In this document: positions 3,925 to 32,603 of the stretch, piece by piece
Layout of the letters: every line of letters starts with the position of its first letter
How positions within the stretch are numbered: position 1 is the stretch's first letter
From: Bacteroidota bacterium
GTDB taxonomy: Bacteria > Bacteroidota > Bacteroidia > 2-12-FULL-35-15
Direction: 5' to 3'
Assembly: GCA_947466965.1 (NCBI GenBank)
Contig: CANIFU010000003.1
Location: 23,151 to 87,150, forward strand
Length of the DNA stretch: 64,000 bases
The notes under the pieces: generated by a model
Database searches by the model: none
What the model saw: only the letters and a program-made list of their open reading frames with translations
Told to the model about the DNA's origin: nothing
Translations under genes and position numbers: made by a program

Positions 3925-3925
3925 A

Positions 3926-4963: not shown

Positions 4964-4969
4964 TTTTCT

Positions 4970-6238: not shown

Positions 6239-6308
6239 GTTTAAGATATTATTTGGAACAATGTGTTACTTTTGTCTTAATTACACCTTCTAATTTGAAT
6301 AAGCGGTA

Positions 6309-9510: not shown

Positions 9511-9514
9511 ATAG

Positions 9515-10420: not shown

Positions 10421-11139
10421 TTTAATAGTTCACTTTTCTCAGTAACAAGTTCATAATCATCAGGAGAAGGATACATATCTTTTTGTATGATACTTTGTAT
10501 GAAAAAATTTTGTATTGATAATGGTATTTTTCTGATCCCTCTTAAATAAAATACATTTTCAATCACGTTACCAATTTTATTTCTTAGTGTTTTTTTATTG
10601 TAACGTGCATATTTTTGACCATATATTTTAACATCATCAAATGTATTATTTAACAAATCGGAGAGTTCATCTAGTGTAAATTCCTGGGTATGGAATGGAT
10701 TTATAATTACACCTGTTGGGCTATTTATAATATAATTTGGTGTTGATATAAATGCTATACCACCGTTTTTTAATGTTCTATAGAACTCAATTACCATTTC
10801 TTTATATTGGGTTGTATGTTCTATCGTTTCAAACGAAACAATTTTATCAAAATAATTGTTGTTAAATGGAATATTAGTTCCATCTATAAATTTGAATTCT
10901 AAATTCTTTAAATCAGTAAATTTTTTAGAGCAATAGTCGATCGTTTCCTGTGAAATATCTCCACCTATGACTAGGTTATCTGTTTTTTCACTTAGGATAG
11001 ATGAGCCAAAACCATTACCGCAAGCAATATCTAAGATGATATCGGAAGGCGATAAGTATTGGAAAGTGCTGTTGTAGCGATGAATGTGTTCGCCCCACCA
11101 TGGAGTATTTTTATTGTGTTCTTGACGTTCTGATGACAT
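10384..11139 (-). CDS. Class I SAM-dependent methyltransferase
   Basis: Motif I 'LDIACGNGFGS'. Motif post-I 'GGDIS'. 251 aa. Confidence 0.8.
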   Translation of the reverse strand: MSSERQEHNKNTPWWGEHIHRYNSTFQYLSPSDIILDIACGNGFGSSILSEKTDNLVIGGDISQETIDYCSKKFTDLKNLEFKFIDGTNIPFNNNYFDKIVSFETIEHTTQYKEMVIEFYRTLKNGGIAFISTPNYIINSPTGVIINPFHTQEFTLDELSDLLNNTFDDVKIYGQKYARYNKKTLRNKIGNVIENVFYLRGIRKIPLSIQNFFIQSIIQKDMYPSPDDYELVTEKSELLKCKTFLAICKKK

Positions 11140-11141
11140 GA

Positions 11142-12260
11142 TTATTCCAGTTTTTTATACATATCTATTATTTTATCTGCATTAGAAATGTCAAATTTTA
11201 ATAGAACATCTTTTTTTAATTTTGTCCCCATGTTTTTTAATTTAACAGGATTATTATATGCGTCAATAATAATTTCTTTTAAATTATTTTCACTGTCTTT
11301 TAATGAAATTAAATAACCATTTACGTTGTTTATTACATAATCATTGTAATCGCCAACGTTATCCGACACTACAATTGCTTTTTCAAATAATGCAAACTCT
11401 TTGGCTGCACTATTACTAGCATCTGTTAAAGATGGCTGAATTAATAAATCAGCGGCAGCCATAAAGTTAATAAAATCTGTTCTGAAACCGAGCATTATAA
11501 TGTGATCTTTTAAATTGAATTTTAAGATGTAAGCTTCAAGGTTTTCTTTTTCCGGGCCTTCATCAAGAACTATTAGTTTTATATCATAGCCTGAATCAAT
11601 AAGATCTTTTACTATTGGAAAAACAATGTGATGCCTTTTTAATTTTATTAATCGTGAAACCATTATTAATCTTAATTTGCAAGGGTATTGAAGTTTTATT
11701 TTTTCAATTTCAGTAGGTTCGGGTTGTTGGTATTTTGAAAAATCATAAATATATGGAATGATGCACATTTTGTTGATATCCACTTTTTCATAATTTTTTA
11801 TCCCTTCGTAAACTCCTTTTGATGGAACAACAATTTTTTTAGCTAAAAAATTAATGATTTTATCAAATCGTATTTCATTTTTATTAATACGAATAACTTC
11901 TTTTATATTTTCTATAAACCGGAAATGATGTCGGAAGACGATTAATTTAGATGTAATAAAGTATTGAGCGATTACTGCAATTATATTTGCATGTTGAAGA
12001 TGGGAATGAATAATGTTGATTTTTTTTTCTTTACAAAATCGGATTAAAAAAATAATTTGTTTAATGTAATATACAAACCCAGATGTGTTGATTTTATTGG
12101 AAAACGTTTGAAAGCCAATTGATTCCATATAAAAATGGAATGCTCCTTTTGAGCAAGTAGTTAAAATAATGATTTCAAAATCTTTTTTTCTAAGTTCAAT
12201 CAATAACGTTTCTAGGGCTATTGTTCTCTTATTAGATGGGTAGTAAAATAATATTTTCAT
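11142..12260 (-). CDS. Glycosyltransferase family 4
   Basis: 372 aa, GT-B architecture. The C-terminal half has conserved E...E donor-site spacing (AKEFALFEKAIVVSD). Stop/start overlap (ATGA) with the downstream GT. Confidence 0.7.
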   Translation of the reverse strand: MKILFYYPSNKRTIALETLLIELRKKDFEIIILTTCSKGAFHFYMESIGFQTFSNKINTSGFVYYIKQIIFLIRFCKEKKINIIHSHLQHANIIAVIAQYFITSKLIVFRHHFRFIENIKEVIRINKNEIRFDKIINFLAKKIVVPSKGVYEGIKNYEKVDINKMCIIPYIYDFSKYQQPEPTEIEKIKLQYPCKLRLIMVSRLIKLKRHHIVFPIVKDLIDSGYDIKLIVLDEGPEKENLEAYILKFNLKDHIIMLGFRTDFINFMAAADLLIQPSLTDASNSAAKEFALFEKAIVVSDNVGDYNDYVINNVNGYLISLKDSENNLKEIIIDAYNNPVKLKNMGTKLKKDVLLKFDISNADKIIDMYKKLE

Positions 12261-13345
12261 TATTTAAATTGAAAGTCTTTTTCTAATTGGTTAAATTGTT
12301 TTTTAAAGTATTGTATTGCATTTTCTTCTGTGTAGAGTTGTCCTATTTCCATACATTTTTGTGAAAGTTTTTTCTTTTCGGTATCAGTTAATCCAAAAAA
12401 CCAATTTATTTTATTAGCAATAATTTTGGCATCAAGTGGAGAAATTAGTTCTTTACTAACTTTTTCAACAACTTCTTTGGTGCCTGTCCATTCAGAAATG
12501 AGAGGGGGGATTCCATAAGACATTGCAATAAGCACTGTTAGTCCATAAGCTTCACCGCGAGCACAATGTAAATAGAATGAACTTTTGTTTAAAAAAATAT
12601 CAAGCTTTTCGGTGTTTCCAATAAAATGTATTGCTTTTTGTGTTTCTATTGAATATAGGTTAAGAAGTTCAACCTTCAGTTTATCTTCCCAATCGCCAAC
12701 AATTGTGAATGTTAATTCAGAATCTTCTTTTAAAGCAATAGAAAAAGCTTCTAACATTAGATCAAGTCCTTTATACCACAATCGGTTTTGACCTGGCCCT
12801 TGACCTATAAATAAAATATTTTTATGATTATCTATTGAAGTGATATTTTGCTGTTTAGGAAAATGATTAGAAGGTATTCCATTTATTACAGTATATAATT
12901 TAGGCGTTTTTTCACCTAATATATTTTTCACGAGCATTTCAGCCATTTCACCTTCGCATATAAGAGCATCATAACGTTTTAGTGCCTGAATATGAAGATA
13001 TTCAGTAAAGCGGGAAAAACGATGTGTATATATGAAATAAAGGGTGTGGCTTCCTAAATGTGCTACAATTTTTTGTTTTTTTGAAATCAATCGGAATGAT
13101 TTCATAATTACAGGCATGAAATGAAGGTTATCAACTAGAAAAATTTCATATTTTCTTTTTAAAGGAAATGTAATTGCGCAAACAAACCAGCTAATTATTC
13201 TGTATAAAATAAATTTATTCTTATCCTGCCATCTCATTTTGAAATCCACAAAATGAAATGTTGCATTCACTGATTCAGCAAATTTCCTATGCATTGGATG
13301 TGCACAAGGTCTCCCTTGAATGTATGCTACCTTAATTTGCTTCAT
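12260..13345 (-). CDS. Glycosyltransferase (GT4-like)
   Basis: 361 aa. C-terminal 'GEAYGLTVLIAMSYGIPPLISEWTG' matches the GT4 nucleotide-sugar binding segment. Confidence 0.7.
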   Translation of the reverse strand: MKQIKVAYIQGRPCAHPMHRKFAESVNATFHFVDFKMRWQDKNKFILYRIISWFVCAITFPLKRKYEIFLVDNLHFMPVIMKSFRLISKKQKIVAHLGSHTLYFIYTHRFSRFTEYLHIQALKRYDALICEGEMAEMLVKNILGEKTPKLYTVINGIPSNHFPKQQNITSIDNHKNILFIGQGPGQNRLWYKGLDLMLEAFSIALKEDSELTFTIVGDWEDKLKVELLNLYSIETQKAIHFIGNTEKLDIFLNKSSFYLHCARGEAYGLTVLIAMSYGIPPLISEWTGTKEVVEKVSKELISPLDAKIIANKINWFFGLTDTEKKKLSQKCMEIGQLYTEENAIQYFKKQFNQLEKDFQFK

Positions 13346-13366
13346 TTAAAAATTGTAATTAGGGAT

Positions 13367-14272
13367 CTAACTATTTTTCCCAACGTAAATAAATGTATTA
13401 CCCCAGCGATTGTTAATCGAACTAAGTAAAATACTGGTTTTGCCAATGAGTAGCTTTATTTTTCCTCCAATACCCTTTGCTGAATTATAAGAGGCAGGGT
13501 ATGGCCATGCAGCTTCACTGATTTTATATTCTAATGTAGTAAGGTTGAACTTTTCAAAAAAAGTCAATTGATTTGTGGAGTTAGTAAATGTAATGTGAGT
13601 AGGAGTGTGGTTAGAAATGTATCCATTTCTATATTTGTTCATCAATTTGAAGTATGTCTTTCTTGATAAAAAAGCGAAGTTGAAATTACATTCTATTGGG
13701 CCTTCAACAATTAGAATCCCATTTTTATTTAGTTTAGTTAATAATAGTTGCATTGTTTCATTTGGCGAATCCAGGTGCTCTAAAACATTGCTTAATCTTA
13801 TTATATCATATTTAATGTCGGGGTTTTGCAAGATTTCGTTTGTAGTGTAAAAATTGCTTGCAGAATACTCTTTTTTTAATATTTCAACATGTTCAGCGTT
13901 ATATTCAGCACCATCGCATTTTATTCCTGAAACAGTTGCATTAACAATGAAATTTGCATTTCCACATCCATAGTCCAAAACCTTTGGACTTCCTTCAAAA
14001 TGTTTTTTTATTAAATCAAATTGAACGCCATAACTAAAGCGAAGTCCAAGGAGTTTTTTATATTTGTCTGATTGAATAGTTTTATCTACGCCATTTTGAT
14101 AATAAGGAGGATACATCTTCAGATAATCATTGGAATTAGGCATTGGTGTAATATAAACAACTTCACAATTCATACATTTAATGTAACTAAACGTTTTACC
14201 GTTGAAAGTAGTGGAAGGTAAAAATGTTTTACTATAATGACTTCGTGAACAATAAGGGCAAGACATAAACAA
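13367..14272 (-). CDS. Class I SAM-dependent methyltransferase with N-terminal Cys4 zinc ribbon
   Basis: N-terminal 'CPYCSRS...CMNCEV'. Motif I 'LDYGCGNANF'. 'LSNVLEHLDSP' motif II/III. 301 aa. Same architecture as the 3013-3924 product. Confidence 0.8.
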   Translation of the reverse strand: MFMSCPYCSRSHYSKTFLPSTTFNGKTFSYIKCMNCEVVYITPMPNSNDYLKMYPPYYQNGVDKTIQSDKYKKLLGLRFSYGVQFDLIKKHFEGSPKVLDYGCGNANFIVNATVSGIKCDGAEYNAEHVEILKKEYSASNFYTTNEILQNPDIKYDIIRLSNVLEHLDSPNETMQLLLTKLNKNGILIVEGPIECNFNFAFLSRKTYFKLMNKYRNGYISNHTPTHITFTNSTNQLTFFEKFNLTTLEYKISEAAWPYPASYNSAKGIGGKIKLLIGKTSILLSSINNRWGNTFIYVGKNS

Positions 14273-14310
14273 GATCTATTAATTACTCTTTCAATGGCAG
14301 CAAATTTATA

Positions 14311-15465
14311 CTAATCTTTTTTTGAATGCAATACTTTCTCATAAAATATCTCATTTGGCATGGCTATATTTTTACTTCCATAGTTTTCCAATATAGTTTT
14401 CCGGGCTTTGTGTCCTAATTTTTTTCTTAATTCAATGTTTTCAATTAAAAGCGATATTTTAGCTGCTAAATCATCTGTGTTACCACATTTGAATACAATT
14501 CCATTTACATTATCTTTTACGATGCTGGTTAATTCAGGAATATCTGAAACGACTATAGGCAACTCCATGGCCATTTTTTCTAATAGTGCAATGGGTAATC
14601 CTTCTTGGTATGAAGGGAAAACAGCAAAGTCGCATTCATTTAAAATATCAGTAATTTGATATTGAGTGCCCATAAATACAACAGAATTGTCAAGAATTAG
14701 TTTCTTTGTGAGGTCTTGAATTTTATTATTTAATCCATCAGGTCCAACAAGAATAAGTTTTTTTTTGTGTTTACTATTGATTTTACTCCAGGATACAATT
14801 AGATCTTCATGTCCTTTAGGATAATCTATTCTTGCAACGTACACGACTGAAGTATATTCCCTTTTTATTTTAGGTTTTGGCTTATACAGATTGATATTCA
14901 ACTTGTTTTCAATACGTGTTAATTTTTTATCTTTTCCTAAAAGTTTATGATTTATAATTTCATCATAAGTCCCCTTAGAGATTGCAATTATATTGTATTT
15001 TTTAAATACAATACGGTAGATTACACCTAAAATATTTAATGATAATGATTTTTGGTTCAGTCTTAAAAGATGTTGAGTGAATACTAATTCACAATTGGTT
15101 TTCTGTTGGATCAATATTCCAATCCTTAGTTCTCGCGGATGGATGTGAAGATGCAAGATATCGGGTTTTTCACCTATGATGTCATTTATCAATTGTGCAC
15201 CATTTCTTTTTACAAACTTAGTAAAAAGAAAATGTTTAAAATAGCTCAATAGAGAATAGTTTAAGCTGTATTGATAGGTATACGTTTTAATCTTAATTTC
15301 AGGAGAAAGCTGATACGTAGATAATAATTCAATGTCTTTATTTAATGTATAAATAGAAACATCATATTGATTTAAATTTGCGGAAGAGCAGATATCGAGC
15401 ACAACTTTTTGTGTACCTCCAACTCCAAGATCAGGAACAAGGTGAATTACTTTTGTTTTTTTCAC
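14311..15465 (-). CDS. Glycosyltransferase family 4
   Basis: 384 aa. N-terminal 'HLVPDLGVGGTQKVVLD'. C-terminal 'PSYQEGLPIALLEKMAMELPIVVSD' (EX7E-like). Confidence 0.8.
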   Translation of the reverse strand: MKKTKVIHLVPDLGVGGTQKVVLDICSSANLNQYDVSIYTLNKDIELLSTYQLSPEIKIKTYTYQYSLNYSLLSYFKHFLFTKFVKRNGAQLINDIIGEKPDILHLHIHPRELRIGILIQQKTNCELVFTQHLLRLNQKSLSLNILGVIYRIVFKKYNIIAISKGTYDEIINHKLLGKDKKLTRIENKLNINLYKPKPKIKREYTSVVYVARIDYPKGHEDLIVSWSKINSKHKKKLILVGPDGLNNKIQDLTKKLILDNSVVFMGTQYQITDILNECDFAVFPSYQEGLPIALLEKMAMELPIVVSDIPELTSIVKDNVNGIVFKCGNTDDLAAKISLLIENIELRKKLGHKARKTILENYGSKNIAMPNEIFYEKVLHSKKD

Positions 15466-15482
15466 TTTTATTAGTAAAATGG

Positions 15483-16175
15483 TTACTGGTTGTTGTCTCT
15501 GATTTTTCTGATTGTATAACTGATATGTCGATTATTTTCGTGAGTTAAGTATAGAAATTCCCAATTATGCTCAACACAGAATTCGTTTACAGCCTCTACA
15601 ACACCATATCTTGTGAAATTATTATAGCAACGAGTTACATAATCATGCCCAGTAATTAGTCCATCTGTTTTAACTTTTTTTAAACAACTATTTAATTCTT
15701 TTTTAGTTGTTTCATATGAATGGTCCGTATCAATGTAAACCCAATCAAAATAATGATCTTCAAATTTTTCTAATTCTATGTATGAAAATCCTTTATGAAA
15801 AACAATATTGTTGTCCATGAGTTCCATTTTTAGATTCTGCTTGGTAGTTTCCATTTTTTCTATGGTGTATTGCATGCTATCCCATGCATCAATTAAATGT
15901 AGTTTTTGGGGTTTACATTTGCTTATAATTTCTTTTGAAAAAAGTCCTTCATCAACTCCCAACTCAGCAATAATTCCGTTTTTGGGTAATAAATTTAACA
16001 TTGCATCTCTGTCAGAAATTATTTTCAAATTTCTCAGGTGTATATCGGTTAATACGGGAGAGGGGAAACGTTTTTGATATTCTTTTTCTTCCTTTTGCAT
16101 CTGAAGCATGGTCATCCAATTAAATTTTAGTTTAATGGAATAAGGAATAAAATTATTATAAAAGAATCTGAACAT
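15483..16175 (-). CDS. Class I SAM-dependent (O-)methyltransferase, TylF/MycF-like fold
   Basis: 230 aa. Motif I 'ELGVDEGLFS'. Acidic 'IDAWDS' and 'YIDTDHSYE' motifs resemble the small sugar/macrolide O-MTase family. Family assignment is tentative. Confidence 0.6.
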   Translation of the reverse strand: MFRFFYNNFIPYSIKLKFNWMTMLQMQKEEKEYQKRFPSPVLTDIHLRNLKIISDRDAMLNLLPKNGIIAELGVDEGLFSKEIISKCKPQKLHLIDAWDSMQYTIEKMETTKQNLKMELMDNNIVFHKGFSYIELEKFEDHYFDWVYIDTDHSYETTKKELNSCLKKVKTDGLITGHDYVTRCYNNFTRYGVVEAVNEFCVEHNWEFLYLTHENNRHISYTIRKIRDNNQ

Positions 16176-16218
16176 GGTATTATTTTTTAAATTTTAAAAA
16201 CGAATTAATTCTTGTAAA

Positions 16219-17988
16219 TTAATTATTTGCTATTAATCGCCCCTCCTCTAATTTGTAAATTACATCACAATATTTTAATGTTTGAATTCTATGGGCAACA
16301 ATGATAATTGTAAGTTCCTTATGTGAAATATTATTTATAGATTCTGTTAGCATTTCTTCAGTTTCTGTATCGAGTGAGCTGGTTGCTTCATCAAATATTA
16401 AAATTTGTCCTCCATGATATAATGCTCTTGCTATACCAATTCTTTGTCGTTGTCCTCCGGATATTTTTATACCTTTTTCTCCAATTTGGGTTTGAGATCC
16501 TTCGGGAAGTAAATTTACAAACTGTTCCAATTGTGATTGAACAATCACTTGGTCTAATAAATTATTATCAATCTCATTTACCGGTATTCCAAATGCTATA
16601 TTTTCACTAATTGAACCGTCTAACAGCGTAATATTTTGAGGAACATAACTTACCAATTTGTACCAATCGAACAAATTTGATTTATCAATTTTGATGTTAT
16701 CAACAAAAATTCCACCACTGCTTTCTTGGAAAAGCCTTAATAGAATATTCAGTAAGGTTGTTTTTCCTGCGCCTGATGTACCAATTATTCCAATTGTTTG
16801 TCCTTTTTGAATAGTAAGATTAAGGTTTGTTAATACGTTCGCTGTATTATTTTCAAAGCTGAAAGCAAGATCCTTGATTACTAAATTTTCTTTAAATTCT
16901 AATGCGCTTGTATTCTCATTCTTGCTTCTTTTATTTGAATCTCTCGTTAATTCTTCAACTTCCATATTTTTATCGAAATGCTGGAAAATATATGTATTCG
17001 TTTTGATATAATTCGATGTTAATATGATTTTATTCATTGAAGGAATAAGCCGAAATGCTGCAATCGCAAAAATGATTAAAAATTGCGCCAATACGGCTAA
17101 GTCTTTATTTAATAAATATCCTGAAATAAAAATGGAAAATATCGCTAAAACTGCCACTGTCTCTACAAATTTCGGAGAAAATGAATTCATTAGAAACGTT
17201 TCAGAAACGGACTTGCTGTATTTGTCCACAGTCTTTTTAAATAATGGCTTAAAATAATTTACTTTATTAAAAATCGTAATTTCTCTGAATGCTTCCATAG
17301 ATTGAAGCCCTAATTTAAACATGTATGCACTTTCTGCATCTCTTCGTTCTGATATTTCTCGTAATTTCTTTTTATAAATTTTGTTATAAACTAGTAAAAA
17401 TGGAGCGGTGAAAAGTATAAGTGACCAAAATAATAATGGGTCATAAAATATAATAATGGAAATAATTAAAATCAAGATAAATAATTCATTTACTAATGCT
17501 ATAAATGGAAGTATCATGTAATTTATTAGTTCAAAAGGTATTTGAGTAAAGTTTCTTAATAATACTGCAGTATTATTATCGGAGTGAAAGCTATAGGGTT
17601 TTTTAAAATAGGAATAATACTTTTCAATGGATAGTCGACAAGCTAAATTAAATGCTACTGTAATTTGTTTTTTTGAAATGATATAGAAAAAAAAATTTTT
17701 AAGAACAAACAAAATCGTAATTGAACTGAACAAGAATAATACAAAACTTATATTGTTTTTGAAATGAAGAGAAGTATAAAGTAAATTAACATACTTGTTT
17801 TCCTGAATAATAGCTGGCTCAATAATAATTCTTATAACAGGAAAGAGAACAAAAAGTCCGAAAATTTCAAAAAGAGACGTTACAAGATAAATCGGGGCGA
17901 GCCTTATAATTGCTTTGAATACATAAGGTGGCAGCTTATCCTTAATGTTATAATATGTATCAACTAAAAAAAAACGATTCCTACTCAT
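16219..17988 (-). CDS. ABC exporter, fused permease-ATPase (MsbA/type-I exporter-like)
   Basis: 589 aa. N-terminal about 6 TM helices. C-terminal NBD with Walker A 'GTSGAGKTT', signature 'LSGGQRQR', Walker B 'ILIFDEATS', and H-loop. Confidence 0.9.
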   Translation of the reverse strand: MSRNRFFLVDTYYNIKDKLPPYVFKAIIRLAPIYLVTSLFEIFGLFVLFPVIRIIIEPAIIQENKYVNLLYTSLHFKNNISFVLFLFSSITILFVLKNFFFYIISKKQITVAFNLACRLSIEKYYSYFKKPYSFHSDNNTAVLLRNFTQIPFELINYMILPFIALVNELFILILIISIIIFYDPLLFWSLILFTAPFLLVYNKIYKKKLREISERRDAESAYMFKLGLQSMEAFREITIFNKVNYFKPLFKKTVDKYSKSVSETFLMNSFSPKFVETVAVLAIFSIFISGYLLNKDLAVLAQFLIIFAIAAFRLIPSMNKIILTSNYIKTNTYIFQHFDKNMEVEELTRDSNKRSKNENTSALEFKENLVIKDLAFSFENNTANVLTNLNLTIQKGQTIGIIGTSGAGKTTLLNILLRLFQESSGGIFVDNIKIDKSNLFDWYKLVSYVPQNITLLDGSISENIAFGIPVNEIDNNLLDQVIVQSQLEQFVNLLPEGSQTQIGEKGIKISGGQRQRIGIARALYHGGQILIFDEATSSLDTETEEMLTESINNISHKELTIIIVAHRIQTLKYCDVIYKLEEGRLIANN

Positions 17989-18072
17989 TTATAATTTATA
18001 TCTTTTCAAAGATAACAAATAGGGTTATATCTACTCATTTTTTATATGTAAATTTGTACAATATTTTAGATT

Positions 18073-18651
18073 ATGAAACTCGTCTTCGCAACCTCCAATC
18101 AAAATAAAGCAAATGAAATTCAATCTTTGATTCCGGATGTAATACAAATATTAAGTTTACTCGATATTCAATGCAACGAAGAAATTCCCGAAACTCAACC
18201 TACTATTGAAAGGAATGCATCTCAAAAGGCTTTTTATGTTTACGAAAAGTACAATAAAAATTGTTTTGCCGATGATACGGGTTTAGAAGTGGAAAGTTTA
18301 GACGGGAGTCCAGGTGTGTTTTCTGCTCGTTATGCTGGTGAAAGCAGAGATGCGAATCAAAACATGGATAAAGTTCTACAGGAATTGGAGCTGAAAGAAA
18401 ATCGTAAAGCCCGTTTTAAAACAGTTATTTCATTGGTAATTAATGGAAATGAGATGCAGTTTGAAGGCGTTGTCAATGGTGTGATTTTGTCAGAAAAAAG
18501 AGGTGAAAGTGGGTTTGGATACGATCCCATTTTTCTTCCTGATGGATACGATCTTTCATTTGCCCAAATGGATCTTCTTACAAAAAATAAAATATCTCAT
18601 AGGGCCAAGGCTGTGAATAAACTTGTTGAATACTTGAGGACGATTGTCTGA
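18073..18651 (+). CDS. rdgB: Non-canonical purine NTP pyrophosphatase (RdgB/HAM1/ITPase)
   Basis: 'KLVFATSNQNKANE' N-terminal motif. 'FGYDPIF' and 'SHRAKA' C-terminal motifs. 192 aa. Confidence 0.9.
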   Translation: MKLVFATSNQNKANEIQSLIPDVIQILSLLDIQCNEEIPETQPTIERNASQKAFYVYEKYNKNCFADDTGLEVESLDGSPGVFSARYAGESRDANQNMDKVLQELELKENRKARFKTVISLVINGNEMQFEGVVNGVILSEKRGESGFGYDPIFLPDGYDLSFAQMDLLTKNKISHRAKAVNKLVEYLRTIV

Positions 18652-18756
18652 AATGGCCTTTCCTTAAGTTTAAATTTGTACATTATAAGGTACGTTTCCT
18701 TATTCTTTTTTTATTAAAATCTTTGCGGACTTTAAGTCATTGCGAGAATAAAGCAA

Positions 18757-21468
18757 TTGTACATGAAAATCAAAATAGGAATTATTTTTGGCGGTTTTTC
18801 TAAAGAACGTGAAATATCTTTTGCTGGTGGACGTACGGTTTATGATAATCTCAATAAATCATTGTTTGAAGCAGTTCCAGTGTTTGTGGATAGTTTTGGA
18901 AATTTTGTTTTGCTAAACTGGGAATTCGTTTATAAAGGCAGTATCCGTGATTTTTATCCTCCAGCAGAATTTATCCCTAATAAAGATGGGGATTTTCAAA
19001 TTTATGCCGAGCAAATTGGAAAATTATCTGATAAACAGCAGCTTGAACTCATCAATAAAATTGGTAGTAAGCTAGAACCGAATACTTTAAAATCACATTT
19101 TGATTTTGCTTTTTTATGCTTACATGGTGCTTTTGGTGAAGATGGAAAGATTCAAGGTTTGTTAGAATATTTGGGAATCCCTTATTCCGGATCCGGTATC
19201 TTACCTTCGGCAATAGGTATCGATAAAAGTGTTCAAAAACGATTGATGGTGAATGCAGGATTTAATAGCCCTAATTATTTTACTATTGAAAGGGCAAGTT
19301 GGATGAATGGAACTCTTAAAAATATATTTGAAAAAGCAAAAAAAGAAATAGGTCTTCCCTTGGTTATTAAACCTGCTAATCAAGGTTCTTCCATTGGTAT
19401 AAGTATTTTGCATGAAGATGATAATTTAAAATTTATGGAGGCTGTTGAAAAAGCCTTTTTTACTAAATGGCAAGATGCATCCGAATGGAAAAAATTATCT
19501 GCTGCTGAAAAAAATAACTTTGTGAGAACCCTTGCCGATATCCGTGAAGGTATTGGTATGCCTATAAATGTATCAACTTCAAATTTTAAAATAAAGCATG
19601 TTGTATATCATCCTCAGGATTTGATAATTTACTTAGATGAAATTTTTGAAACAGAAAAAGAGGGTGCTGTTTTTGAAGCCTTGGATGGTGAAAGTAAAGT
19701 GTTAATCGAAGGTTTTATTGAGGGAAAAGAATTCTCTTGTATAGTTGCACAAGATGAAAATGGAAAAGCTATTGCTCTTCCTCCAACCGAAATCCGTAAA
19801 GGAAAAGAATTGTTTGATTACCGTTCAAAATACTTACCTGGTCTTTCCAGAAAAATCACACCAATTGATTTGCCAAATGAGCAAATTCAAGCTATTCGAA
19901 AAGAATGTGAACGTTTGTTCTATGCCTTGAGTTTTGATGTATATGCCCGCATCGATGGATTCATATCAACTGAAGGAAAGGTATTTTTAAACGATCCGAA
20001 TACTACTTCAGGTATGATGCCTTCTTCTTTTTTCTTTCATCAGGCGGCAGAAATTGGTTTAAATCCGTCTCAATTTCTTACTTATATTATCCGTACTTCA
20101 TTGGCTCAACGTTTAATCGCAACTAAAAATAGTGGTGTATTTGATTCTTTATTAACTAAATTGGATGCTGCTATTCAGTCGGATCAAAACGCTATAACCA
20201 ATAAAATTAAAGTTGCAGTGATTCTTGGGGGATATTCTTCCGAGCGTCATATTTCTGTTGAAAGTGGAAGAAATATTTACGAAAAATTAGCTTCTTCATC
20301 CAAATATGAGCCTATTCCCGTTTTTCTAACTGGCAATAATGATGAACATCTGATGTATCAGATTCCTGTAAATGTTTTATTGAAAGACAATGCCGATGAT
20401 ATAAAAGATAAAATCAATCATTATAAAATTCATGATCTTGTCAAAGATATTATTACTGAGTGTAATCCTATCACTTCTAAATATTCAAATAAAGACAATC
20501 TAGCAAAACCCAAACAAATTACATACGAAGATTTAGGAAAGATGGTGGATTGTGTTTTTATCGCTCTTCACGGTCGTCCAGGCGAAGATGGCGCTGTTCA
20601 GGCCAATTTGGAAAAAGTAGGCTTGCCTTATAATGGCTCTGGTGTAGATAGTTCTCAAATTACAATCGATAAATATCGTACCAATGAAATTCTGAAGCAA
20701 AATGGATTTCTTGTTGCAGATCATTTACTTGTTTCTGAAGCCGAATGGACTTCAGATTATTTGAATGTATTGAAAAGGATCAAAGATGAAATTCAATATC
20801 CTTTTATTGCAAAGCCGGTGGATGACGGATGTTCTTCCGCAGTAAAAAAAATAAAAACACCTGAAGAGTTTGAAGCTTTTGCAACGTTGATTTTCCGTAA
20901 ATCGGAAACATTAGATCCTGCTGCTGCCAAAGTGTTACATATCAAAGAAAAAGAGGAGTTTCCTCAAAAGCAGTATATTCTGGTTGAAGAGTTAATTTCA
21001 AAAAGAGATGCAGTACATTTTTTAGAAGTAACAGGGGGTATGCTAACGAACTACGATGCAAACAATAATGTTTCCTACGAAGTTTTTGAAGCATCTGAGG
21101 CATTGAGTGAAGGGGAGGTTTTATCATTAGAAGAAAAATTTTTAGCTGGACAAGGCCAAAATATCACTCCTGCGCGTTACTCCCTTGATGCGGAAGTGCG
21201 TCAGCAAATTTCTGATCAGGTGAAACTTACCTTGGGTGCTGCTGCCAAATTATTAAATATTAACGGGTATACTCGGATTGATGCCTTCGTTAGAATCTAT
21301 AGTGTGAATAGGGTAGAAGTAGTATTTGTAGAAGTAAATTCATTGCCTGGCATGACGCCAGCAACTTGTATCTTTCACCAAACGGCTATTAATGGTTATA
21401 AACCGTATGATTTTATTGATCGTATTTTAGATTTTGCTTTTCAAAAACGAAAAATATTGCTAAACTGA
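18757..21468 (+). CDS. ddl: Tandem (duplicated) D-alanine--D-alanine ligase-like ATP-grasp protein
   Basis: 903 aa with two complete Ddl-like modules. Module 1 starts 'IGIIFGGFSKEREISFAGGRTVY' and has 'PLVIKPANQGSSIGISIL' and 'ARIDGFIS...VFLNDPNTTSGM'. Module 2 starts 'VAVILGGYSSERHISVESGRNIY' and has 'PFIAKPVDDGCSSAVKKI' and 'TRIDAFV...VFVEVNSLPGMT'. Each module has N-terminal, central and ATP-grasp segments. Confidence 0.8.
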   Translation: MYMKIKIGIIFGGFSKEREISFAGGRTVYDNLNKSLFEAVPVFVDSFGNFVLLNWEFVYKGSIRDFYPPAEFIPNKDGDFQIYAEQIGKLSDKQQLELINKIGSKLEPNTLKSHFDFAFLCLHGAFGEDGKIQGLLEYLGIPYSGSGILPSAIGIDKSVQKRLMVNAGFNSPNYFTIERASWMNGTLKNIFEKAKKEIGLPLVIKPANQGSSIGISILHEDDNLKFMEAVEKAFFTKWQDASEWKKLSAAEKNNFVRTLADIREGIGMPINVSTSNFKIKHVVYHPQDLIIYLDEIFETEKEGAVFEALDGESKVLIEGFIEGKEFSCIVAQDENGKAIALPPTEIRKGKELFDYRSKYLPGLSRKITPIDLPNEQIQAIRKECERLFYALSFDVYARIDGFISTEGKVFLNDPNTTSGMMPSSFFFHQAAEIGLNPSQFLTYIIRTSLAQRLIATKNSGVFDSLLTKLDAAIQSDQNAITNKIKVAVILGGYSSERHISVESGRNIYEKLASSSKYEPIPVFLTGNNDEHLMYQIPVNVLLKDNADDIKDKINHYKIHDLVKDIITECNPITSKYSNKDNLAKPKQITYEDLGKMVDCVFIALHGRPGEDGAVQANLEKVGLPYNGSGVDSSQITIDKYRTNEILKQNGFLVADHLLVSEAEWTSDYLNVLKRIKDEIQYPFIAKPVDDGCSSAVKKIKTPEEFEAFATLIFRKSETLDPAAAKVLHIKEKEEFPQKQYILVEELISKRDAVHFLEVTGGMLTNYDANNNVSYEVFEASEALSEGEVLSLEEKFLAGQGQNITPARYSLDAEVRQQISDQVKLTLGAAAKLLNINGYTRIDAFVRIYSVNRVEVVFVEVNSLPGMTPATCIFHQTAINGYKPYDFIDRILDFAFQKRKILLN

Positions 21469-21607
21469 TTTTGCCCGAAAGTCATTTACCGAAATAGTTT
21501 TTTCAGTTGCCTTTAGTCTATAAATATTGAATTTTATGGCATAAAAAGCAATTATTTACTATTTCTTTCGTTTCCTTAAAATTCGTACATTCGTAAACTA
21601 AATCCGA

Positions 21608-22453
21608 ATGCCATTAGTTATGTTCAAAGAACTATTACAATTCATAAAAAGTAAAACATTCTTAATTCATCTGTCCATTTACTTGGTATCTGTTTTTTTG
21701 ATATGCTGGTTGATTATTTCTTGGTTAGGCAGAACTACAAATCATAATGAAACAGTTGTAGTTCCTGATTTTTCAGGTATCAGCATCAAGGAATTAGATC
21801 AGTTTGTTGCGGATAAAAATTTGCGCTATCTTGTAATCGATTCCTTGTATGATCTGAAAGCTAAAAAAGGAGTGGTTGTTAAACAAGAGCCTGAAGCAAA
21901 TGCCGAAGTGAAGGAAGGAAGAACCATTTATTTATATGTTACTTCCGTTTTGCCACCAAGTATTCAAATGCCTAAGTTGGTTGATCGCTCATTGAGACAA
22001 GCCGCTGCAATGATTACAACCTTTGGATTAAGGTTGGGTAAAACCAAGTTTGTAGCTGACCAATGTGCTAATTGTGTATTGGAACAACTGGTAAAAGGGA
22101 GAAAAATTGCCGCAGGTGAAAAAATTGAAAAAGGAACGATTATCGATTTAATTGTTGGTAAAGGACTTAGTGAAGAAGAAATTGACGTTCCTTGCTTATA
22201 CGGACTAACACGTAAAGAAGCACTCTTAAAACTGACGGAAGCTTCATTGAGTATTGGAGCAGTAAGTTTTGATTTTGCAAAAGATTCGGTTAATGGAAAA
22301 GTATATCGTCAAATTCCAAATTGTAGTAAGGATACAAAAATTAATATGGGAGGAACAATCGATTTATATTTTACAAATGATAAAAATAAATTGTCTTCTG
22401 TACCTGATACTTCAAGTGTAAAAAATAATGATGATGAAAATTTTGATGAATAA
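21608..22453 (+). CDS. PASTA domain-containing membrane-anchored protein
   Basis: N-terminal TM helix followed by three PASTA-like repeats (VVVPDFSGISIKEL..., IQMPKLVDRSLRQA..., IDVPCLYGLTRKEAL...). Its position between ddl and rluD is typical in Bacteroidota. Confidence 0.75.
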   Translation: MPLVMFKELLQFIKSKTFLIHLSIYLVSVFLICWLIISWLGRTTNHNETVVVPDFSGISIKELDQFVADKNLRYLVIDSLYDLKAKKGVVVKQEPEANAEVKEGRTIYLYVTSVLPPSIQMPKLVDRSLRQAAAMITTFGLRLGKTKFVADQCANCVLEQLVKGRKIAAGEKIEKGTIIDLIVGKGLSEEEIDVPCLYGLTRKEALLKLTEASLSIGAVSFDFAKDSVNGKVYRQIPNCSKDTKINMGGTIDLYFTNDKNKLSSVPDTSSVKNNDDENFDE

Positions 22454-24299
22454 AATACTAGTGGTTGTTTGTGTTTTGTTTTATTCAACCCTCAGTTTTT
22501 CCCAGGGTTTGGTAGAAAATGAATTAAGCACGAATCCTAGTATTATCAGTAAATATAATCAACTTAAAGTTTCATATAAAGCCGCATCGATATACGATAC
22601 ATTGCGCTTGGGTGTTAAAGGTATCTTAGACGACTTTTCTGCCGAAGGACCATATCCCGATACTTCGTTATGGTTGGATAATAAAGTATTTATTAACCGC
22701 GATTTTGCAAAAGCACCAATTACCCTTGGAGTAGCAACGTTTGAAGGATTAGATTATAATGGTTATCCCTACGATTTCACAGCAGGATCAACAAGTTCTG
22801 CTGTTGCTGATTTTTTGACATCTAAGCCTATTCATCTTAATAATCTTTTAAGTGATTCAATTTATTTGAGCTTTTATTATCAACCTCAAGGCAATGGCAA
22901 TGCTCCTGAATATCCGGACTCCTTGGTTGTGCAATTTAAGAATGGAACATTGGGCTGGAAAAATGTTTGGGCCAAAAGAGGAAGTACACTTACTTCTAAT
23001 GATAGTTCATGGTCATTAGCGATGATTCCAATTAACGATACCGCTTATTTGAAAGATGGTTTTCAATTCAGGTTTTATAATCGTGCAACCATAAGTGGGA
23101 ATACGGATCATTGGAATATTGATTATGTTTATTTGAATAAAACCAGAAATATAAATGATACCACTTTTGAAGATGTAACCTTTGTTTATAATACTCCTTC
23201 GTTGTTAAATACCTATTCTGCAATGCCCTGGAAGCAATACAGTGCATCAGATATGAAACTGAATTATAATACATCCATACGTAATAATCATACTGTTACA
23301 AAAAATGGAAGCTTTATTTATAAAATATTTAATGATCTTGGTGTTCAGGTGAATACTACTTATTCCGGTGGTAGTTTTAATATCGACCCGTTTTCTTCAA
23401 GTGGCTATATGAATTATGCGGCATTCACCAATCCAGCACTTAATTTTACAATACCAATTCTTACAGCAGCCTCTCGGTATTCAATAGAAAGTACAATCTC
23501 TTCTACTCCTGATAATGATCGTGGTAATGATACAGTACGTTTTGTTCAAGACCTTACCAACTACTTTTCTTATGACGATGGTACAGCTGAAAATTCATTT
23601 GGACTGAGCACACTTTATGCCCAACTTGCTGAGAAATTTACATTAAATATTGCCGATTCATTGCAATATATTGATATTTATTTTAATCCGTTTTTAATAA
23701 ATTCATCCATCTATTCTTTTAATATACATGTATGGACCGATGGAGGTGGAGTGCCGGGAACTGCCATATATATAAGTGCTTTACCCGATAGTCCTGAATA
23801 CGGAATGGTGATGCCAAATCAATTTATCCGTTATAAGTTAGATGCACCTTTGTATTTGAATCCCGGAACATTTTATGTTGGTTTCAAGCAAAATACAAAT
23901 CAGTTTTTAAATGTTGGAGTGGATAAAAATACGAATACCCAATCAAAAATATTTTACAATGTTACAGGCTCTTGGAATGCTTCTCCCTTTGTAGGTTCGT
24001 TAATGCTGCATCCTGTTTTTGGTTCTGCATCAGAGTTTACGGATATTTCTGAAGAAAGAAAATCCGAAAATATAGGAGTAGTTTATCCAAACCCCGCAAG
24101 CGATCAATTATTTATTGATGGTTTTTCCGACACACAAAAAATCAGTTTTACTATTTTTGATTTGTTGGGTAACGTTGTAATTCATAATTCAGTTTATGAC
24201 AATTTTATTGATATTTCAAATTTAGGAAGTGGCGTATATTTTATTCAAATGAATGACGAAGAAAATAGTTCTACACTTAAATTTATTAAACTAAAATAA
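22428..24299 (+). CDS. Secreted protein with T9SS type-A C-terminal sorting domain
   Basis: Signal peptide (MMMKILMNKILVVVCVLFYSTLSFSQ). The C-terminal about 80 aa, 'VYPNPASDQLFI...FTIFDLLGNVV...GVYFIQM...KFIKLK', matches the Por/T9SS CTD pattern. Confidence 0.75.
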   Translation: MMMKILMNKILVVVCVLFYSTLSFSQGLVENELSTNPSIISKYNQLKVSYKAASIYDTLRLGVKGILDDFSAEGPYPDTSLWLDNKVFINRDFAKAPITLGVATFEGLDYNGYPYDFTAGSTSSAVADFLTSKPIHLNNLLSDSIYLSFYYQPQGNGNAPEYPDSLVVQFKNGTLGWKNVWAKRGSTLTSNDSSWSLAMIPINDTAYLKDGFQFRFYNRATISGNTDHWNIDYVYLNKTRNINDTTFEDVTFVYNTPSLLNTYSAMPWKQYSASDMKLNYNTSIRNNHTVTKNGSFIYKIFNDLGVQVNTTYSGGSFNIDPFSSSGYMNYAAFTNPALNFTIPILTAASRYSIESTISSTPDNDRGNDTVRFVQDLTNYFSYDDGTAENSFGLSTLYAQLAEKFTLNIADSLQYIDIYFNPFLINSSIYSFNIHVWTDGGGVPGTAIYISALPDSPEYGMVMPNQFIRYKLDAPLYLNPGTFYVGFKQNTNQFLNVGVDKNTNTQSKIFYNVTGSWNASPFVGSLMLHPVFGSASEFTDISEERKSENIGVVYPNPASDQLFIDGFSDTQKISFTIFDLLGNVVIHNSVYDNFIDISNLGSGVYFIQMNDEENSSTLKFIKLK

Positions 24300-28408: not shown

Positions 28409-28429
28409 AAAGAGGTACTTATCCTCTTT
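28409..28429 (-). terminator. Intrinsic terminator following the 117-aa gene
   Basis: 7-bp stem 'aaagagg'/'cctcttt' with a 7-nt loop. On the minus strand it is followed by 'ttttttattt'. Confidence 0.55.
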
Positions 28430-28782
28430 TAATAGTTACTATTGTTGTTTTTTTTAGGAGGTTCAGTTGCTGCAGGAGTATAAGACGCTGATTTTTTATT
28501 TTTATTTCTTTTCGGGATTCCTTGTTCTTTAATGGACATTTTAGTTGATCCTATTGTGTCGTTCTTAGCATCATTTATTGATTTTGAACTTTTCGCACCC
28601 TTAATACTTTCCGCTCTTTCTTGTTTAACTGTTTCTTTTGGAGTTTCTTGTTTATAGGAAACGGTATCCAGATCTTTTTTGATTACCTCTTGAGCCCCAA
28701 TAGAATTACTTAAACTTATTCCTATAGTTAAAAAGGATAGTTGTAGTATGTTTTTCATTTGTATTTTATTTTTACGAAGCAT
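28429..28782 (-). CDS. Small secreted Lys-rich low-complexity protein (117 aa)
   Basis: Signal peptide. K/S/N-rich, with no recognisable domain. It has its own terminator hairpin downstream. Confidence 0.45.
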   Translation of the reverse strand: MLRKNKIQMKNILQLSFLTIGISLSNSIGAQEVIKKDLDTVSYKQETPKETVKQERAESIKGAKSSKSINDAKNDTIGSTKMSIKEQGIPKRNKNKKSASYTPAATEPPKKNNNSNY

Positions 28783-28808
28783 AAAAAAGATAATGCTACA
28801 GGGTAAAA

Positions 28809-31082
28809 TTAGTTCTTTAAAAGTTCAAGTGCCTCCTGAATTGTAATGTATTCACCATTAAAGAATGCTAGAATAAATGCATCATCAATTCCGTTTTTTA
28901 CTAAGTCGTTTTTTGCTGATTGTGCAGTTACATAATCATGAAATGGACCTACTGTATAACGATTTAAGCCTGTTGGTGTAATTTCTTTTGTTACCAGCCC
29001 TTTCACTGATTGTAATTTTGCAGCTTTATCGGGAGGAGGTTCGTTTTTAAATACACCAACTTGAATTTTAAAAGTAACCAATTTTTTATTAACGCCATTA
29101 ACTGCAGCGTTATCTGAAGTACTTTGTTCTATTAGATCTTCTTTCTTTTGAGGTGTTGCACCCGCTTCCGTTAAAGTAACTCGTTTTCCATCTTTGTAAG
29201 CTGTTATAAAAGCACCTTGGTAACCTTTTAATAGTAAATCTACTTTGTGTTTTGCGGCATCCTCAAATGTTTTAAAAGAACCGGTCATGTATTTATAAAG
29301 ACCATCTTCAGTTTTTATTTCAATCAAATCATTTATGTCTTTAAAAACATTTTTAGATAATCTATTTTTATATGCACCCAATTGAACTCTCAGAACTATT
29401 CCCTTTGAATCAGCTGCAGAAATAGAAGTGGATATATTGTTCGAATTATTCAAGTTGTTATTCGTATTTGTAGAGGAATTACTTGTTGTATTTGTTGAAC
29501 TATTATTTGTAGTTGTTGATTTTATTGAAGTATTTATTGCTGAATTAGTTGCAGGATTTGTATTTACAGCACTGTTAGTTGCGGCTGCCGTTGAATTATT
29601 AGATAGTTGTGTTGAATATGCCGGAGCATTATAAAATTTACCATTTTGTTTGTAAACAACTTTTGCATCTGTTAATCCTTGCTCGACTAATTGCTTTTTA
29701 CGTATTTCGGCATCCAATAAATTGTTGAATTTTCCAGCAGTGTATGTTGTAGTGGAATCATCAATGTTGAAACTTGATATATCACCGATACTTAAAAATT
29801 TAGTCATTAATTCAGGTGGAAGACCTTTTTTGAAGGTGCCTATTTCTACACTGTACTCTTTTTGATATAAATTACTATAAAGTTCTTTCCCATTGTGATC
29901 ATGTCTCTCAACTGTTGCAAATGCACCTGTTGAATCCATATAAAAACGATATTTATAGTCAATAATCGAGTCGTTTAGTTGCACACCTTTAGCGTCAACA
30001 AAGGAATCTTTAGGCGAATCTAATTCATCATCTTTGTAATTTGGAACATTATCATTGTCATCATCCAAAGGACACCCTTTGATGTCAACAGGTACACCTT
30101 CTGGAGTGCCCTGACAGGAATCATTCGCATCACTAACCCCATCTTTATCTATATCAGAAAGATCAAGTGCAAAAAAATCGACATCATTAAAGGTATCATC
30201 ATCCATTTCTCCTTCCTTTTCTTTCATCCCAAATTTGTAATGCAATGAAAAAGAACTCATCATAAATTTATCATTACTTTTTTTACCAACACGATTTCCT
30301 ATACTTTCGTTAGAAATTCCATCAATATAGTCGGTAAGAGTAAAGTGCATGGTTGCACCAATTTTAAAATCCCAAAAATCGTTGATTTTAAAAATCACAC
30401 CGGCACCAACAGGAAAAGCCCAAGAACGTTCGGCGTATTTTCCGAATCCATCAAGATTCATTTCACGGATATCAGATTCGTATTTATAGTCGCGCTGAAT
30501 TTCGATTGCCATGTTTGCTGTTGGAGCACTTTGGTCAATATTACGGATTGTGCCATCAGACCAGTAGTAATAACGATTTCCGTTTCCATCAAAAATGTCA
30601 GTTTTAGAAAGGAACTCAAACGATTCGAACCCCAATGAAATATAGGGACTAGCATCTCTTGATGCTGGTAAAAAATTATCGAAATTATAAAGTAGATTGA
30701 TTCCCCCTACTCGAATCTCAGATTCAAAATTTAAGTTTCTATTATTCGGTTCGGCTCGCTCATTAGCACCTAATTTGCCAAATAAAGCATAAAAATTAAC
30801 GTCCAAATAATCAGTTAATCGTTGAGCAATACTTAGGTCATAACCTATTCGGCTAACCATTGGTGCTTGAAAATGTTTAACGTAAAGATCCCCGTAAAAA
30901 GAAAACATTCCAGTGCCAATACCTATGGCAGGTTTGAAAATGAATTCTTTTTTATCTTTTAATTTATTGGAATATGATGAAGGGGAAGTTGCACTATCAA
31001 CAATGGAGGAAGTTTCTGTTTGAGAATATAAAACAGAGTTGAAAAATAAGAATAATAGTATGATTTTTATTCCTTTAACCAT
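28809..31082 (-). CDS. Outer-membrane beta-barrel protein with TSP3 calcium-binding repeats and two C-terminal SPOR domains
   Basis: Signal peptide. N-terminal about 280 aa of alternating-hydrophobic beta-strand pattern. Thrombospondin type-3 repeats (DKDGVSDANDSCQG...CPLDDDNDNVPNYKD). A long N/S/T low-complexity linker. Two SPOR-like modules (RVQLGAYKN...GAFITAY and FKIQVGVFKN...DAFILAF). Confidence 0.7.
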   Translation of the reverse strand: MVKGIKIILLFLFFNSVLYSQTETSSIVDSATSPSSYSNKLKDKKEFIFKPAIGIGTGMFSFYGDLYVKHFQAPMVSRIGYDLSIAQRLTDYLDVNFYALFGKLGANERAEPNNRNLNFESEIRVGGINLLYNFDNFLPASRDASPYISLGFESFEFLSKTDIFDGNGNRYYYWSDGTIRNIDQSAPTANMAIEIQRDYKYESDIREMNLDGFGKYAERSWAFPVGAGVIFKINDFWDFKIGATMHFTLTDYIDGISNESIGNRVGKKSNDKFMMSSFSLHYKFGMKEKEGEMDDDTFNDVDFFALDLSDIDKDGVSDANDSCQGTPEGVPVDIKGCPLDDDNDNVPNYKDDELDSPKDSFVDAKGVQLNDSIIDYKYRFYMDSTGAFATVERHDHNGKELYSNLYQKEYSVEIGTFKKGLPPELMTKFLSIGDISSFNIDDSTTTYTAGKFNNLLDAEIRKKQLVEQGLTDAKVVYKQNGKFYNAPAYSTQLSNNSTAAATNSAVNTNPATNSAINTSIKSTTTNNSSTNTTSNSSTNTNNNLNNSNNISTSISAADSKGIVLRVQLGAYKNRLSKNVFKDINDLIEIKTEDGLYKYMTGSFKTFEDAAKHKVDLLLKGYQGAFITAYKDGKRVTLTEAGATPQKKEDLIEQSTSDNAAVNGVNKKLVTFKIQVGVFKNEPPPDKAAKLQSVKGLVTKEITPTGLNRYTVGPFHDYVTAQSAKNDLVKNGIDDAFILAFFNGEYITIQEALELLKN

Positions 31083-31149
31083 AGTTGCAAATATAATAAA
31101 AAAATCAGTCTAACCGAAGTATAAATGCGCTTTTAAGGCGTTTCTAAAG

Positions 31150-32574: not shown

Positions 32575-32603
32575 AAAGTTTGTATTTGTGTTTACTTATA
32601 TAC

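Follow-up and report, generated by a model that had tools for sequence, protein, structure and literature searches.

The window analysed here is a 64,000-nucleotide stretch of DNA from a Bacteroidota bacterium (GenBank assembly GCA_947466965.1, contig CANIFU010000003.1, positions 23,151 to 87,150 of the forward strand). Positions 18757-21468 (+) of the window form an uninterrupted open reading frame (ORF) that encodes two Ddl (D-alanine--D-alanine ligase) modules in tandem. We prefer the ATG at 18763, the first one in frame, over the TTG at 18757 as the start codon, because the identical database protein (P0001; P and L numbers are our handles for proteins and loci) and its relatives are 901 amino acids (aa) long and begin MKIKIG; the gene then comprises 901 codons and a TGA stop. 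A first-pass annotation, made from the sequence alone, had described a 903-aa ORF with two tandem modules, and its architecture stands while its start and length are corrected. The cell-envelope neighbourhood it gave (ddl, PASTA, rluD, lpxD) also holds. On the plus strand, a Ham1-type nucleoside triphosphate pyrophosphatase gene (18073-18651) is followed by the tandem ddl, a PASTA gene, a gene for a protein with a type IX secretion system (T9SS) sorting tail, and the genes for RluD and LpxD.

Both halves of the protein are complete Ddl modules by Pfam, NCBIfam and PDB matches. Pfam finds Dala_Dala_lig_N in two stretches of the whole protein (E = 3e-51) and Dala_Dala_lig_C in four (E = 1e-57), the precomputed domain order of the identical database protein is N-C-N-C, and NCBIfam Ddl models match both halves. 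Searched alone against the PDB, half 1 matches with E values down to 1.4e-43 and half 2 down to 2.4e-22, and all matches are Ddl or Van ligases. The two modules can be aligned with each other over their full length, with 27% identity (E = 4e-35). Whole-protein scores pass the cut-offs of the NCBIfam Ddl models TIGR01205 (388 bits vs 246), NF002528 (387 vs 262) and NF002378 (384 vs 243). Most of the motifs listed at first pass are present, namely GGFSKEREIS and GGYSSERHIS, the nucleotide-binding motif KPANQGSSIGIS of module 1 with its module 2 counterpart KPVDDGCSSAV, and RIDGF and RIDAF. The block given as 'NE.N..PG.T' was only loosely right, since it reads NDPNTTSGM in module 1 (Asp, not Glu) and VEVNSLPGMT in module 2.

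We aligned each half separately to E. coli DdlB (identical residue for residue to PDB 2DLN/1IOV) and to VanA (PDB 1E4E). Both halves keep DdlB E15, H63, E68, K97, K144, G149, S151, E180, E187, K215, R255, D257, N272 and G276. The full catalytic set is present in each half, with E270 to Asp411 in module 1 as the sole change. Around the substrates the modules part company, as seen at DdlB S150 (Ser209 in module 1, Cys690 in module 2), G153 (Gly212, Ala693), Y216 (Tyr357, Phe793), E270 (Asp411, Glu857), S281 (Ser422, Thr868) and L282 (Phe423, Cys869). The substrate triad and Ser281 are complete in module 1 (E15, S209, Y357 and S422, with F423 for Leu282), and the corresponding set in module 2 departs from it (E494, C690, F793, T868 and C869). 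An F-H-Q motif follows position 282 in both halves and is absent from ordinary Ddls.

These differences are conserved. Across 120 close relatives, the catalytic positions (DdlB K97, K144, E180, E187, K215, R255, D257, E/D270, N272, G276, E15 and H63) and the module-specific substitutions are all invariant in both halves. Among 150 distant representatives, two module signatures recur in some 67 intact tandem proteins, at identities as low as about 30%: E-H-K-K/R-S-S-G-E-E-K-Y-R-D-D-N-G-S-F/L for module 1 and E-H-K-K-C-S-A/G-E-E-K-F-R-D-E-N-G-T-C/V/A for module 2. Sampled module-2 sequences have Cys at position 150 in 19 of 21 cases and Phe at position 216 in 21 of 21. For comparison we took 39 ordinary Ddls (the single-module proteins from the fetched loci plus DdlB and VanA), which have S150, E270 and S281 in 39/39 and Y216 in 38/39. 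Because ordinary Ddls are nearly uniform at these positions, the module signatures are real departures from the norm. The first-pass view that the modules had diverged from one another is borne out in both the close and the distant relatives, and neither module is decayed. Separately, Cys690 (20830-20832) and Cys869 (21367-21369) line the predicted second-substrate pocket of module 2; the former is conserved family-wide, and at the latter position other members have Val or Ala. It is conceivable that redox state affects this pocket.

Selection acts on the two modules to the same degree. Mean identity to the query among the 120 close relatives is 82.8% for module 1, 81.6% for module 2 and 63% for the linker, and Nei-Gojobori ratios of nonsynonymous to synonymous substitution (dN/dS) against one 92%-identical relative are 0.058, 0.054 and 0.139, respectively. 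A decayed second module is ruled out by its residue invariance and by a dN/dS equal to that of module 1. Across 88 tandem proteins, mean pairwise identity is 40.3% in module 1 and 40.2% in module 2, and the distance matrices of the modules have a correlation of r = 0.96. In a neighbour-joining tree, module-1 sequences form one clade and module-2 sequences another, with parallel internal branching. Given the congruent clades, the correlated distances and the equal constraint, we conclude that the modules were fused once, in the distant past, and have since diverged in step, and that purifying selection acts on both active sites. The tree gives no clear answer on whether the two module clades are sisters; only the shared F-H-Q motif hints at a common origin.

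The tandem form is widespread. Contigs of three different samples encode a protein identical over all 901 aa, flanked there by the same genes. A word-indexed search gave, among the matches listed, at least 120 full-length clusters of 885-951 aa with identities of 76-100%; their sources are all uncultured Bacteroidota or Bacteroidia, and the usual name is 'D-alanine--D-alanine ligase'. An exhaustive search of 50%-identity representatives added dozens of clusters of 780-930 aa with end-to-end coverage at 30-60% identity. We scanned GTDB species genomes for the two-module gene and found it in Hymenobacter, Pontibacter litorisediminis KCTC 52252, Cytophagaceae, Cyclobacteriaceae, Roseivirgaceae, Saprospirales, Lewinellaceae, Chitinophagales and Sphingobacteriales. 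Shorter forms occur in Dependentiae/Babeliales (about 730 aa, 33-36% identity) and in Patescibacteria (about 790 aa, about 30% identity), among them Saccharibacteria, Peribacteria, Uhrbacteria and Gracilibacteria. Many cultured Pontibacter, Rufibacter, Nibribacter, Adhaeribacter and Botryobacter have the 900-aa form, some of them with finished genomes.

The first-pass annotation had counted it as a refutation if the fused form were already the standard annotated Ddl of this lineage, and it is: in many cultured Hymenobacteraceae the 900-aa form goes by the name 'D-alanine--D-alanine ligase (family protein)' in RefSeq and UniRef. The tandem gene is ordinary for its lineage. We found no description of the architecture in the full-text literature (most subscription journals lie outside its coverage), including for Patescibacteria, Pontibacter, Hymenobacter, Cytophagales and Dependentiae. 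Tandem Ddl is ancient, annotated widely and, it appears, uncharacterised. Some database labels are at odds with the protein. JGI/IMG calls many tandem Ddls (for example P0032-P0034, P0056 and P0076) 'UDP-N-acetylmuramate--alanine ligase' despite their having no Mur ligase domain, probably a mis-transfer from the chlamydial MurC-Ddl orthology group. Tandem ddl genes also lie on contigs of metagenome-assembled genomes (MAGs) labelled Bifidobacteriaceae, Rhizobium, Solirubrobacteraceae and Parachlamydiaceae (loci L011, L017, L043 and L044). L011 is about 54% identical to the query, as in Bacteroidota loci, L017 shows the Bacteroidota PASTA and T9SS synteny, and L043 and L044 are about 27-29% identical, as in Patescibacteria forms; these taxon labels look like binning errors.

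An AlphaFold2 prediction from the 88-sequence alignment modelled the full chain with a mean predicted local distance difference test score (pLDDT) of 92.2 and a predicted template modelling (TM) score (pTM) of 0.91. Two long helices (aa 435-480) lie between the modules, and confidence is lowest at both omega-loop regions, as expected for mobile lids. So high a pTM for a two-module protein implies that the predicted arrangement of the modules is a defined one. Foldseek matched the protein in the PDB only to single Ddl or Van chains (TM scores of 0.8-0.92 normalised to the target and about 0.33 normalised to the query), and found no tandem Ddl structure there. The insert in the central domain of module 1 is without counterpart in E. 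coli DdlB or VanA and is the least conserved stretch of that module; the ~790-aa tandem forms leave query residues ~215-310, which contain it, unmatched.

Table 1. Coordinates of the tandem ddl gene, its parts and its PASTA partner in the 64-kb window.
Feature	Position	Strand	Description	Basis or location
Tandem ddl gene	18763..21468	+		ORF, Pfam, NCBIfam, identical database protein
Module 1, aa 1-445	18763..20097	+	Complete Ddl N, central and ATP-grasp set; canonical Glu15-Ser209-Tyr357 triad	
Module 1 central-domain insert, aa 232-305	19456..19677	+	About 74 aa	
Module 1 omega-loop Lys356-Tyr357	19828..19833	+	DdlB Lys215-Tyr216	
Module 1 Mg2+ motif Asp411-Pro-Asn413	19993..20001	+	Asp for DdlB Glu270, invariant among module-1 sequences	
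Inter-module linker, aa 446-480	20098..20202	+	Two predicted helices; least constrained segment	
Module 2, aa 481-901	20203..21465	+	Complete Ddl N, central and ATP-grasp set; altered Glu494-Cys690-Phe793 triad	
Module 2 Cys690-Ser691	20830..20835	+	DdlB Ser150-Ser151	
Module 2 omega-loop Lys792-Phe793	21136..21141	+	DdlB Lys215-Tyr216	
Module 2 Thr868-Cys869	21364..21369	+	DdlB Ser281-Leu282, D-Ala2 carboxylate site	
PASTA partner gene	21608..22453	+	281 aa; one N-terminal transmembrane helix and PASTA repeats	Downstream of tandem ddl

The gene neighbourhood and its fusions point to peptidoglycan. At least 15 Bacteroidota loci, spread over different families, share the order ddl-ddl, PASTA, T9SS-tail. 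In three proteins of 1244-1285 aa (P0123, P0124 and P0126), Ddl-Ddl with intact catalytic residues is joined to PASTA, with the same transmembrane helix between them; fusions of this kind connect the window's tandem ddl with its PASTA gene in the Rosetta-stone sense. P0270 (1262 aa, locus L088 3509-7297) is a triple fusion of Ddl, Ddl and a Mur ligase, in a cluster (L088 485-9939) that runs MurL-like epimerase, Mur ligase, Ddl-Ddl-Mur ligase and an 876-aa Mur ligase-alanine racemase fusion. An alanine racemase gene also lies near the ~790-aa tandem form at locus L087. PASTA adjacency, the two kinds of fusion and the proximity of alanine racemase together make it plausible that the family is tied to peptidoglycan precursor synthesis, the role proposed at first pass.

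Other features of the window can be noted briefly. The best 120 homologues listed for the PASTA protein are all close, at 59% identity or more. As listed, the 623-aa ORF of the T9SS-sorted protein (22428-24299) shares its first 26 nt (22428-22453) with the end of the PASTA gene, which suggests translational coupling or a later true start of that ORF. A promoter and terminator scan of 17900-22600 gave nothing above chance. Just upstream of the Ham1-type gene, on the minus strand, 3013-17988 holds a long cluster of surface-polysaccharide type, with at least four GT1/GT4-type glycosyltransferases and one of GT2 type, five methyltransferases, an NAD-dependent sugar epimerase/dehydratase, an asparagine synthase and an ATP-binding cassette (ABC) exporter. 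At 28429-33914 (-) a protein of 757 aa, which carries a SPOR (peptidoglycan-binding) domain at its C-terminus, is followed by ORFs of 474 and 436 aa; neither these two nor an adjoining 117-aa ORF has a Pfam match.

Relatives with fewer parts show that the modules can be separated. Cardinium endosymbionts have only a 443-aa module-2-type gene (KPVDDGCS..., ...EEKFLAGEG...; Cys150/Phe216) with the PASTA gene downstream (loci L026 9992-12051, from Cardinium endosymbiont cBtQ1, and L034), and we found no module 1 within the 21 kb fetched at the Cardinium locus. Cardinium is reported to be able to make peptidoglycan, with murA to murF and mraY present (PMC3486910), and its table of peptidoglycan genes lists no ddl (PMC3486910 supplement). 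In Rhodoflexus, Bernardetiaceae, Arcicella and Thermoflexibacter, proteins of 590-630 aa have module 1 intact, then the linker and a dead module-2 N-domain, in which Glu15 and His63 are gone and after which no second ATP-grasp part follows (for example P0176 at locus L089 5272-7161 and relatives P0395-P0511); the PASTA gene is not adjacent. Stand-alone genes of module-1 type and module-2 type also exist (P0230, adjoining ftsZ; P0221, adjoining a Mur/FolC-like ligase gene). Since Cardinium keeps module 2 alone and other Cytophagales keep an intact module 1, these proteins suggest that each module type can stand as a ligase, and retention of the dead N-domain suggests that this part of module 2 has a structural role.

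We compared the tandem protein with characterised ligases. Both modules have the three-domain ATP-grasp fold and full catalytic set of E. coli DdlB and other single-module Ddls (EC 6.3.2.4; PDB 2DLN, 1IOV), and module 1 also shares the DdlB-type Glu15-Ser150-Tyr216 triad and Ser281. The tandem protein differs from DdlB in having two modules per chain, in the inserts within each (about 445 and 420 aa vs 306), in Asp270 and Phe282 of module 1, and in Cys150, Phe216, Thr281 and Cys282 of module 2. Tyr216, Glu15 and Ser150 of DdlB form a hydrogen-bonded triad that governs dipeptide versus depsipeptide synthesis (PMC3378904), and Y216F confers depsipeptide (D-Ala-D-Lac) activity, according to the account given there of Park, Lin & Walsh 1996 and Park & Walsh 1997. 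In L. reuteri, vancomycin resistance rests on a Phe at the Tyr216 position, and the F258Y change in L. reuteri Ddl was designed to yield a dipeptide ligase and hence vancomycin sensitivity (PMC3378904). By the rule of this Phe (PMC3378904), module 2 matches the depsipeptide type in sequence at Lys792-Phe793. It shares this residue, beside the omega-loop Lys, with the D-Ala:D-Lac ligases LmDdl2 of Leuconostoc (Phe261) and L. reuteri Ddl (Phe258) and with DdlB Y216F (PDB 1IOW). L. reuteri Ddl keeps its Ser186, whereas module 2 also has Cys for Ser150 and is fused to a canonical module.

The VanA/B/D (D-Ala:D-Lac) and VanC/E/G/L/N (D-Ala:D-Ser) resistance ligases have the same fold and chemistry, and the tandem protein gives partial matches to their NCBIfam models. 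Its scores lie far below the cut-offs, both for D-Ala:D-Lac types (D_ala_D_lac, 219 bits vs 550; VanA, 167 vs 775; VanB, 150 vs 750) and for D-Ala:D-Ser types (VanG, 274 vs 495; VanC, 158 vs 650). The omega loops are unlike that of VanA, and the Leu282 position holds Phe423 or Cys869 and no Arg, unlike VanA (Arg317) and the VanC/G type; we therefore reject membership of either group. The chlamydial MurC-Ddl also joins a Ddl module to a peptidoglycan-precursor enzyme; identity with it is rejected, because the tandem protein scores 187 bits against a cut-off of 1015 for its model (NF011171/PRK14573) and Pfam finds no Mur ligase domain in the 901 aa. A broader parallel is the large subunit of carbamoyl-phosphate synthetase, in which an ancient internal duplication produced two ATP-grasp halves, both catalytic, with diverged roles in successive steps. 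Its substrates are unrelated, and no two-step logic is evident for Ddl.

We favour, with a probability of roughly two in three, the reading that the protein is a covalent 'heterodimer' of two anciently diverged Ddl modules whose two sites would both be live and would supply D-Ala-D-X, the terminal unit of the peptidoglycan stem peptide. Beneath this reading are direct observations: the architecture, the residue conservation, the purifying selection on both halves, the ancient origin and the peptidoglycan gene context. Each module would bind ATP and Mg2+, generate D-alanyl phosphate and join a second substrate to it. Module 1 would be a canonical D-Ala:D-Ala site, and module 2 would use the same catalytic machinery with a remodelled second-substrate pocket (Cys at Ser150, Phe at Tyr216, Thr at Ser281, and Cys or Val at Leu282). 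Because this pocket is remodelled, module 2 probably differs from module 1 in specificity or kinetics. Module 2 combines a natural Phe216 and Cys150 with retained Glu15, Lys215, Arg255, Gly276 and a hydroxyl at 281, from which an altered or relaxed second-substrate pocket is a reasonable inference, and it possibly tolerates D-lactate or another D-2-hydroxy or D-amino acid. The difference in specificity suggested at first pass is thus plausible, judged from Phe at Tyr216 and Cys at Ser150. We also count in favour the retention of both modules in MAGs of Dependentiae and Patescibacteria, lineages known for small genomes. A bolder version, for which we see only a small chance, makes the protein a two-product machine coupled to PASTA. 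Module 1 would make D-Ala-D-Ala and module 2 D-Ala-D-lactate or another D-Ala-D-X, giving mixed stem-peptide termini in Cytophagales, Chitinophagales, Patescibacteria and Dependentiae, and in Bacteroidota the enzyme and the membrane PASTA protein would couple periplasmic muropeptide sensing to cytoplasmic dipeptide supply.

Several results weigh against the favoured reading of two live sites supplying peptidoglycan. Alone, neither module reaches any of the Ddl cut-offs (TIGR01205, NF002528 and NF002378 give 231.5, 238 and 232 bits for module 1 and 163, 155 and 159 bits for module 2, the exact TIGR01205 cut-off being 245.65), so the database name Ddl rests on the summed score of the two. Module 1 has Asp at the otherwise universal Glu270, a conservative change. 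Packing of the modules like a Ddl homodimer is inferred from the predicted pTM only. We found no second ddl in the 64-kb window (tblastn with both halves and DdlB), and the ~41 kb scanned with Pfam contained no VanH- or VanX-like genes (D-lactate dehydrogenase, D-Ala-D-Ala dipeptidase), alr or murF. In Haliscomenobacter and Phaeodactylibacter the same syntenic slot, with the T9SS-tail gene next, is occupied by ~1200-aa Ddl-Ddl-PASTA proteins in which both active sites are destroyed (P0169, P0173, P0177, P0179, P0183, P0197, P0218 and P0259; locus L091 1954-5664) and which NCBI names only 'PASTA domain-containing protein'. They look like pseudoenzymes kept with a periplasmic sensor domain and suggest a PASTA-linked role that can outlive catalysis. 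Some related genomes must therefore encode another Ddl, and the tandem protein itself may also have a non-catalytic role.

The alternatives draw on these same points. If a canonical ddl elsewhere served peptidoglycan, the tandem protein could be an ATP-grasp pair for some other D-amino-acid product, in a surface polymer or in signalling; the sub-threshold halves, the glycosyltransferase/methyltransferase/ABC-exporter cluster just upstream on the other strand and the second Ddl implied for some relatives are all compatible with this. We think it unlikely, as the D-Ala1 anchor Glu15, Arg255, Gly276 and Ser/Thr281 are all retained, the top matches in the PDB and NCBIfam are Ddl throughout, MAGs of Patescibacteria and Dependentiae retain the tandem form, and relatives show a Mur-ligase fusion set in a mur/alr cluster and an alanine racemase gene close by. 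Slightly less probable is the regulatory pseudo-ligase raised in the first-pass annotation, by which module 2 (or module 1) would be a non-catalytic part serving only to stabilise the other or to regulate it. By its TIGR01205 score module 2 is the more divergent half, its triad is without the Ser and Tyr hydroxyls, a dead module-2 N-domain is kept behind an intact module 1 in Rhodoflexus, Arcicella and Bernardetiaceae, and dead Ddl-Ddl-PASTA proteins do exist. Against this, the ATP, Mg2+ and catalytic residues of module 2 are invariant from Bacteroidota to Patescibacteria, its dN/dS equals that of module 1, and Cardinium keeps module 2 alone. The truly dead relatives, such as those of Haliscomenobacter and Phaeodactylibacter, lose catalytic residues fast, which is what decay looks like.

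Two homologous modules side by side in one ORF at a conserved locus could also reflect a recent, lineage-specific duplication and fusion of the housekeeping ddl, the local event assumed at first pass. We regard this as refuted and give it very little weight: the modules are just 27% identical, they form one clade each with congruent branching and correlated distances (r = 0.96), and the same module order and signatures recur in three phyla (Bacteroidota, Dependentiae and Patescibacteria). Least credible of all is an assembly or gene-calling artefact that joined two adjacent ddl genes. It is refuted by the uninterrupted ORF, by the identical protein in independent assemblies of three samples, by the at least 120 full-length clusters at 76% identity or more and by finished cultured genomes with the same form, and the linker is modelled at high confidence.

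Ddl is an essential and heavily studied antibiotic target, on which D-cycloserine acts and through which vancomycin resistance works. To our knowledge, all structural and kinetic work on Ddl has been done on single-module homodimers. Cultured Hymenobacteraceae, many uncultured Bacteroidota, Dependentiae and Patescibacteria instead encode a fused pair with two different active sites, and module 2 carries substitutions at positions whose mutation turns E. coli DdlB into a depsipeptide ligase. Annotation is affected as well, since the halves fail curated Ddl thresholds, some pipelines call the tandem protein MurC, and the dead fusions are named only for PASTA. If the two sites do differ in product or regulation, genome-based prediction of peptidoglycan termini, intrinsic glycopeptide tolerance and D-cycloserine sensitivity would change in these bacteria.

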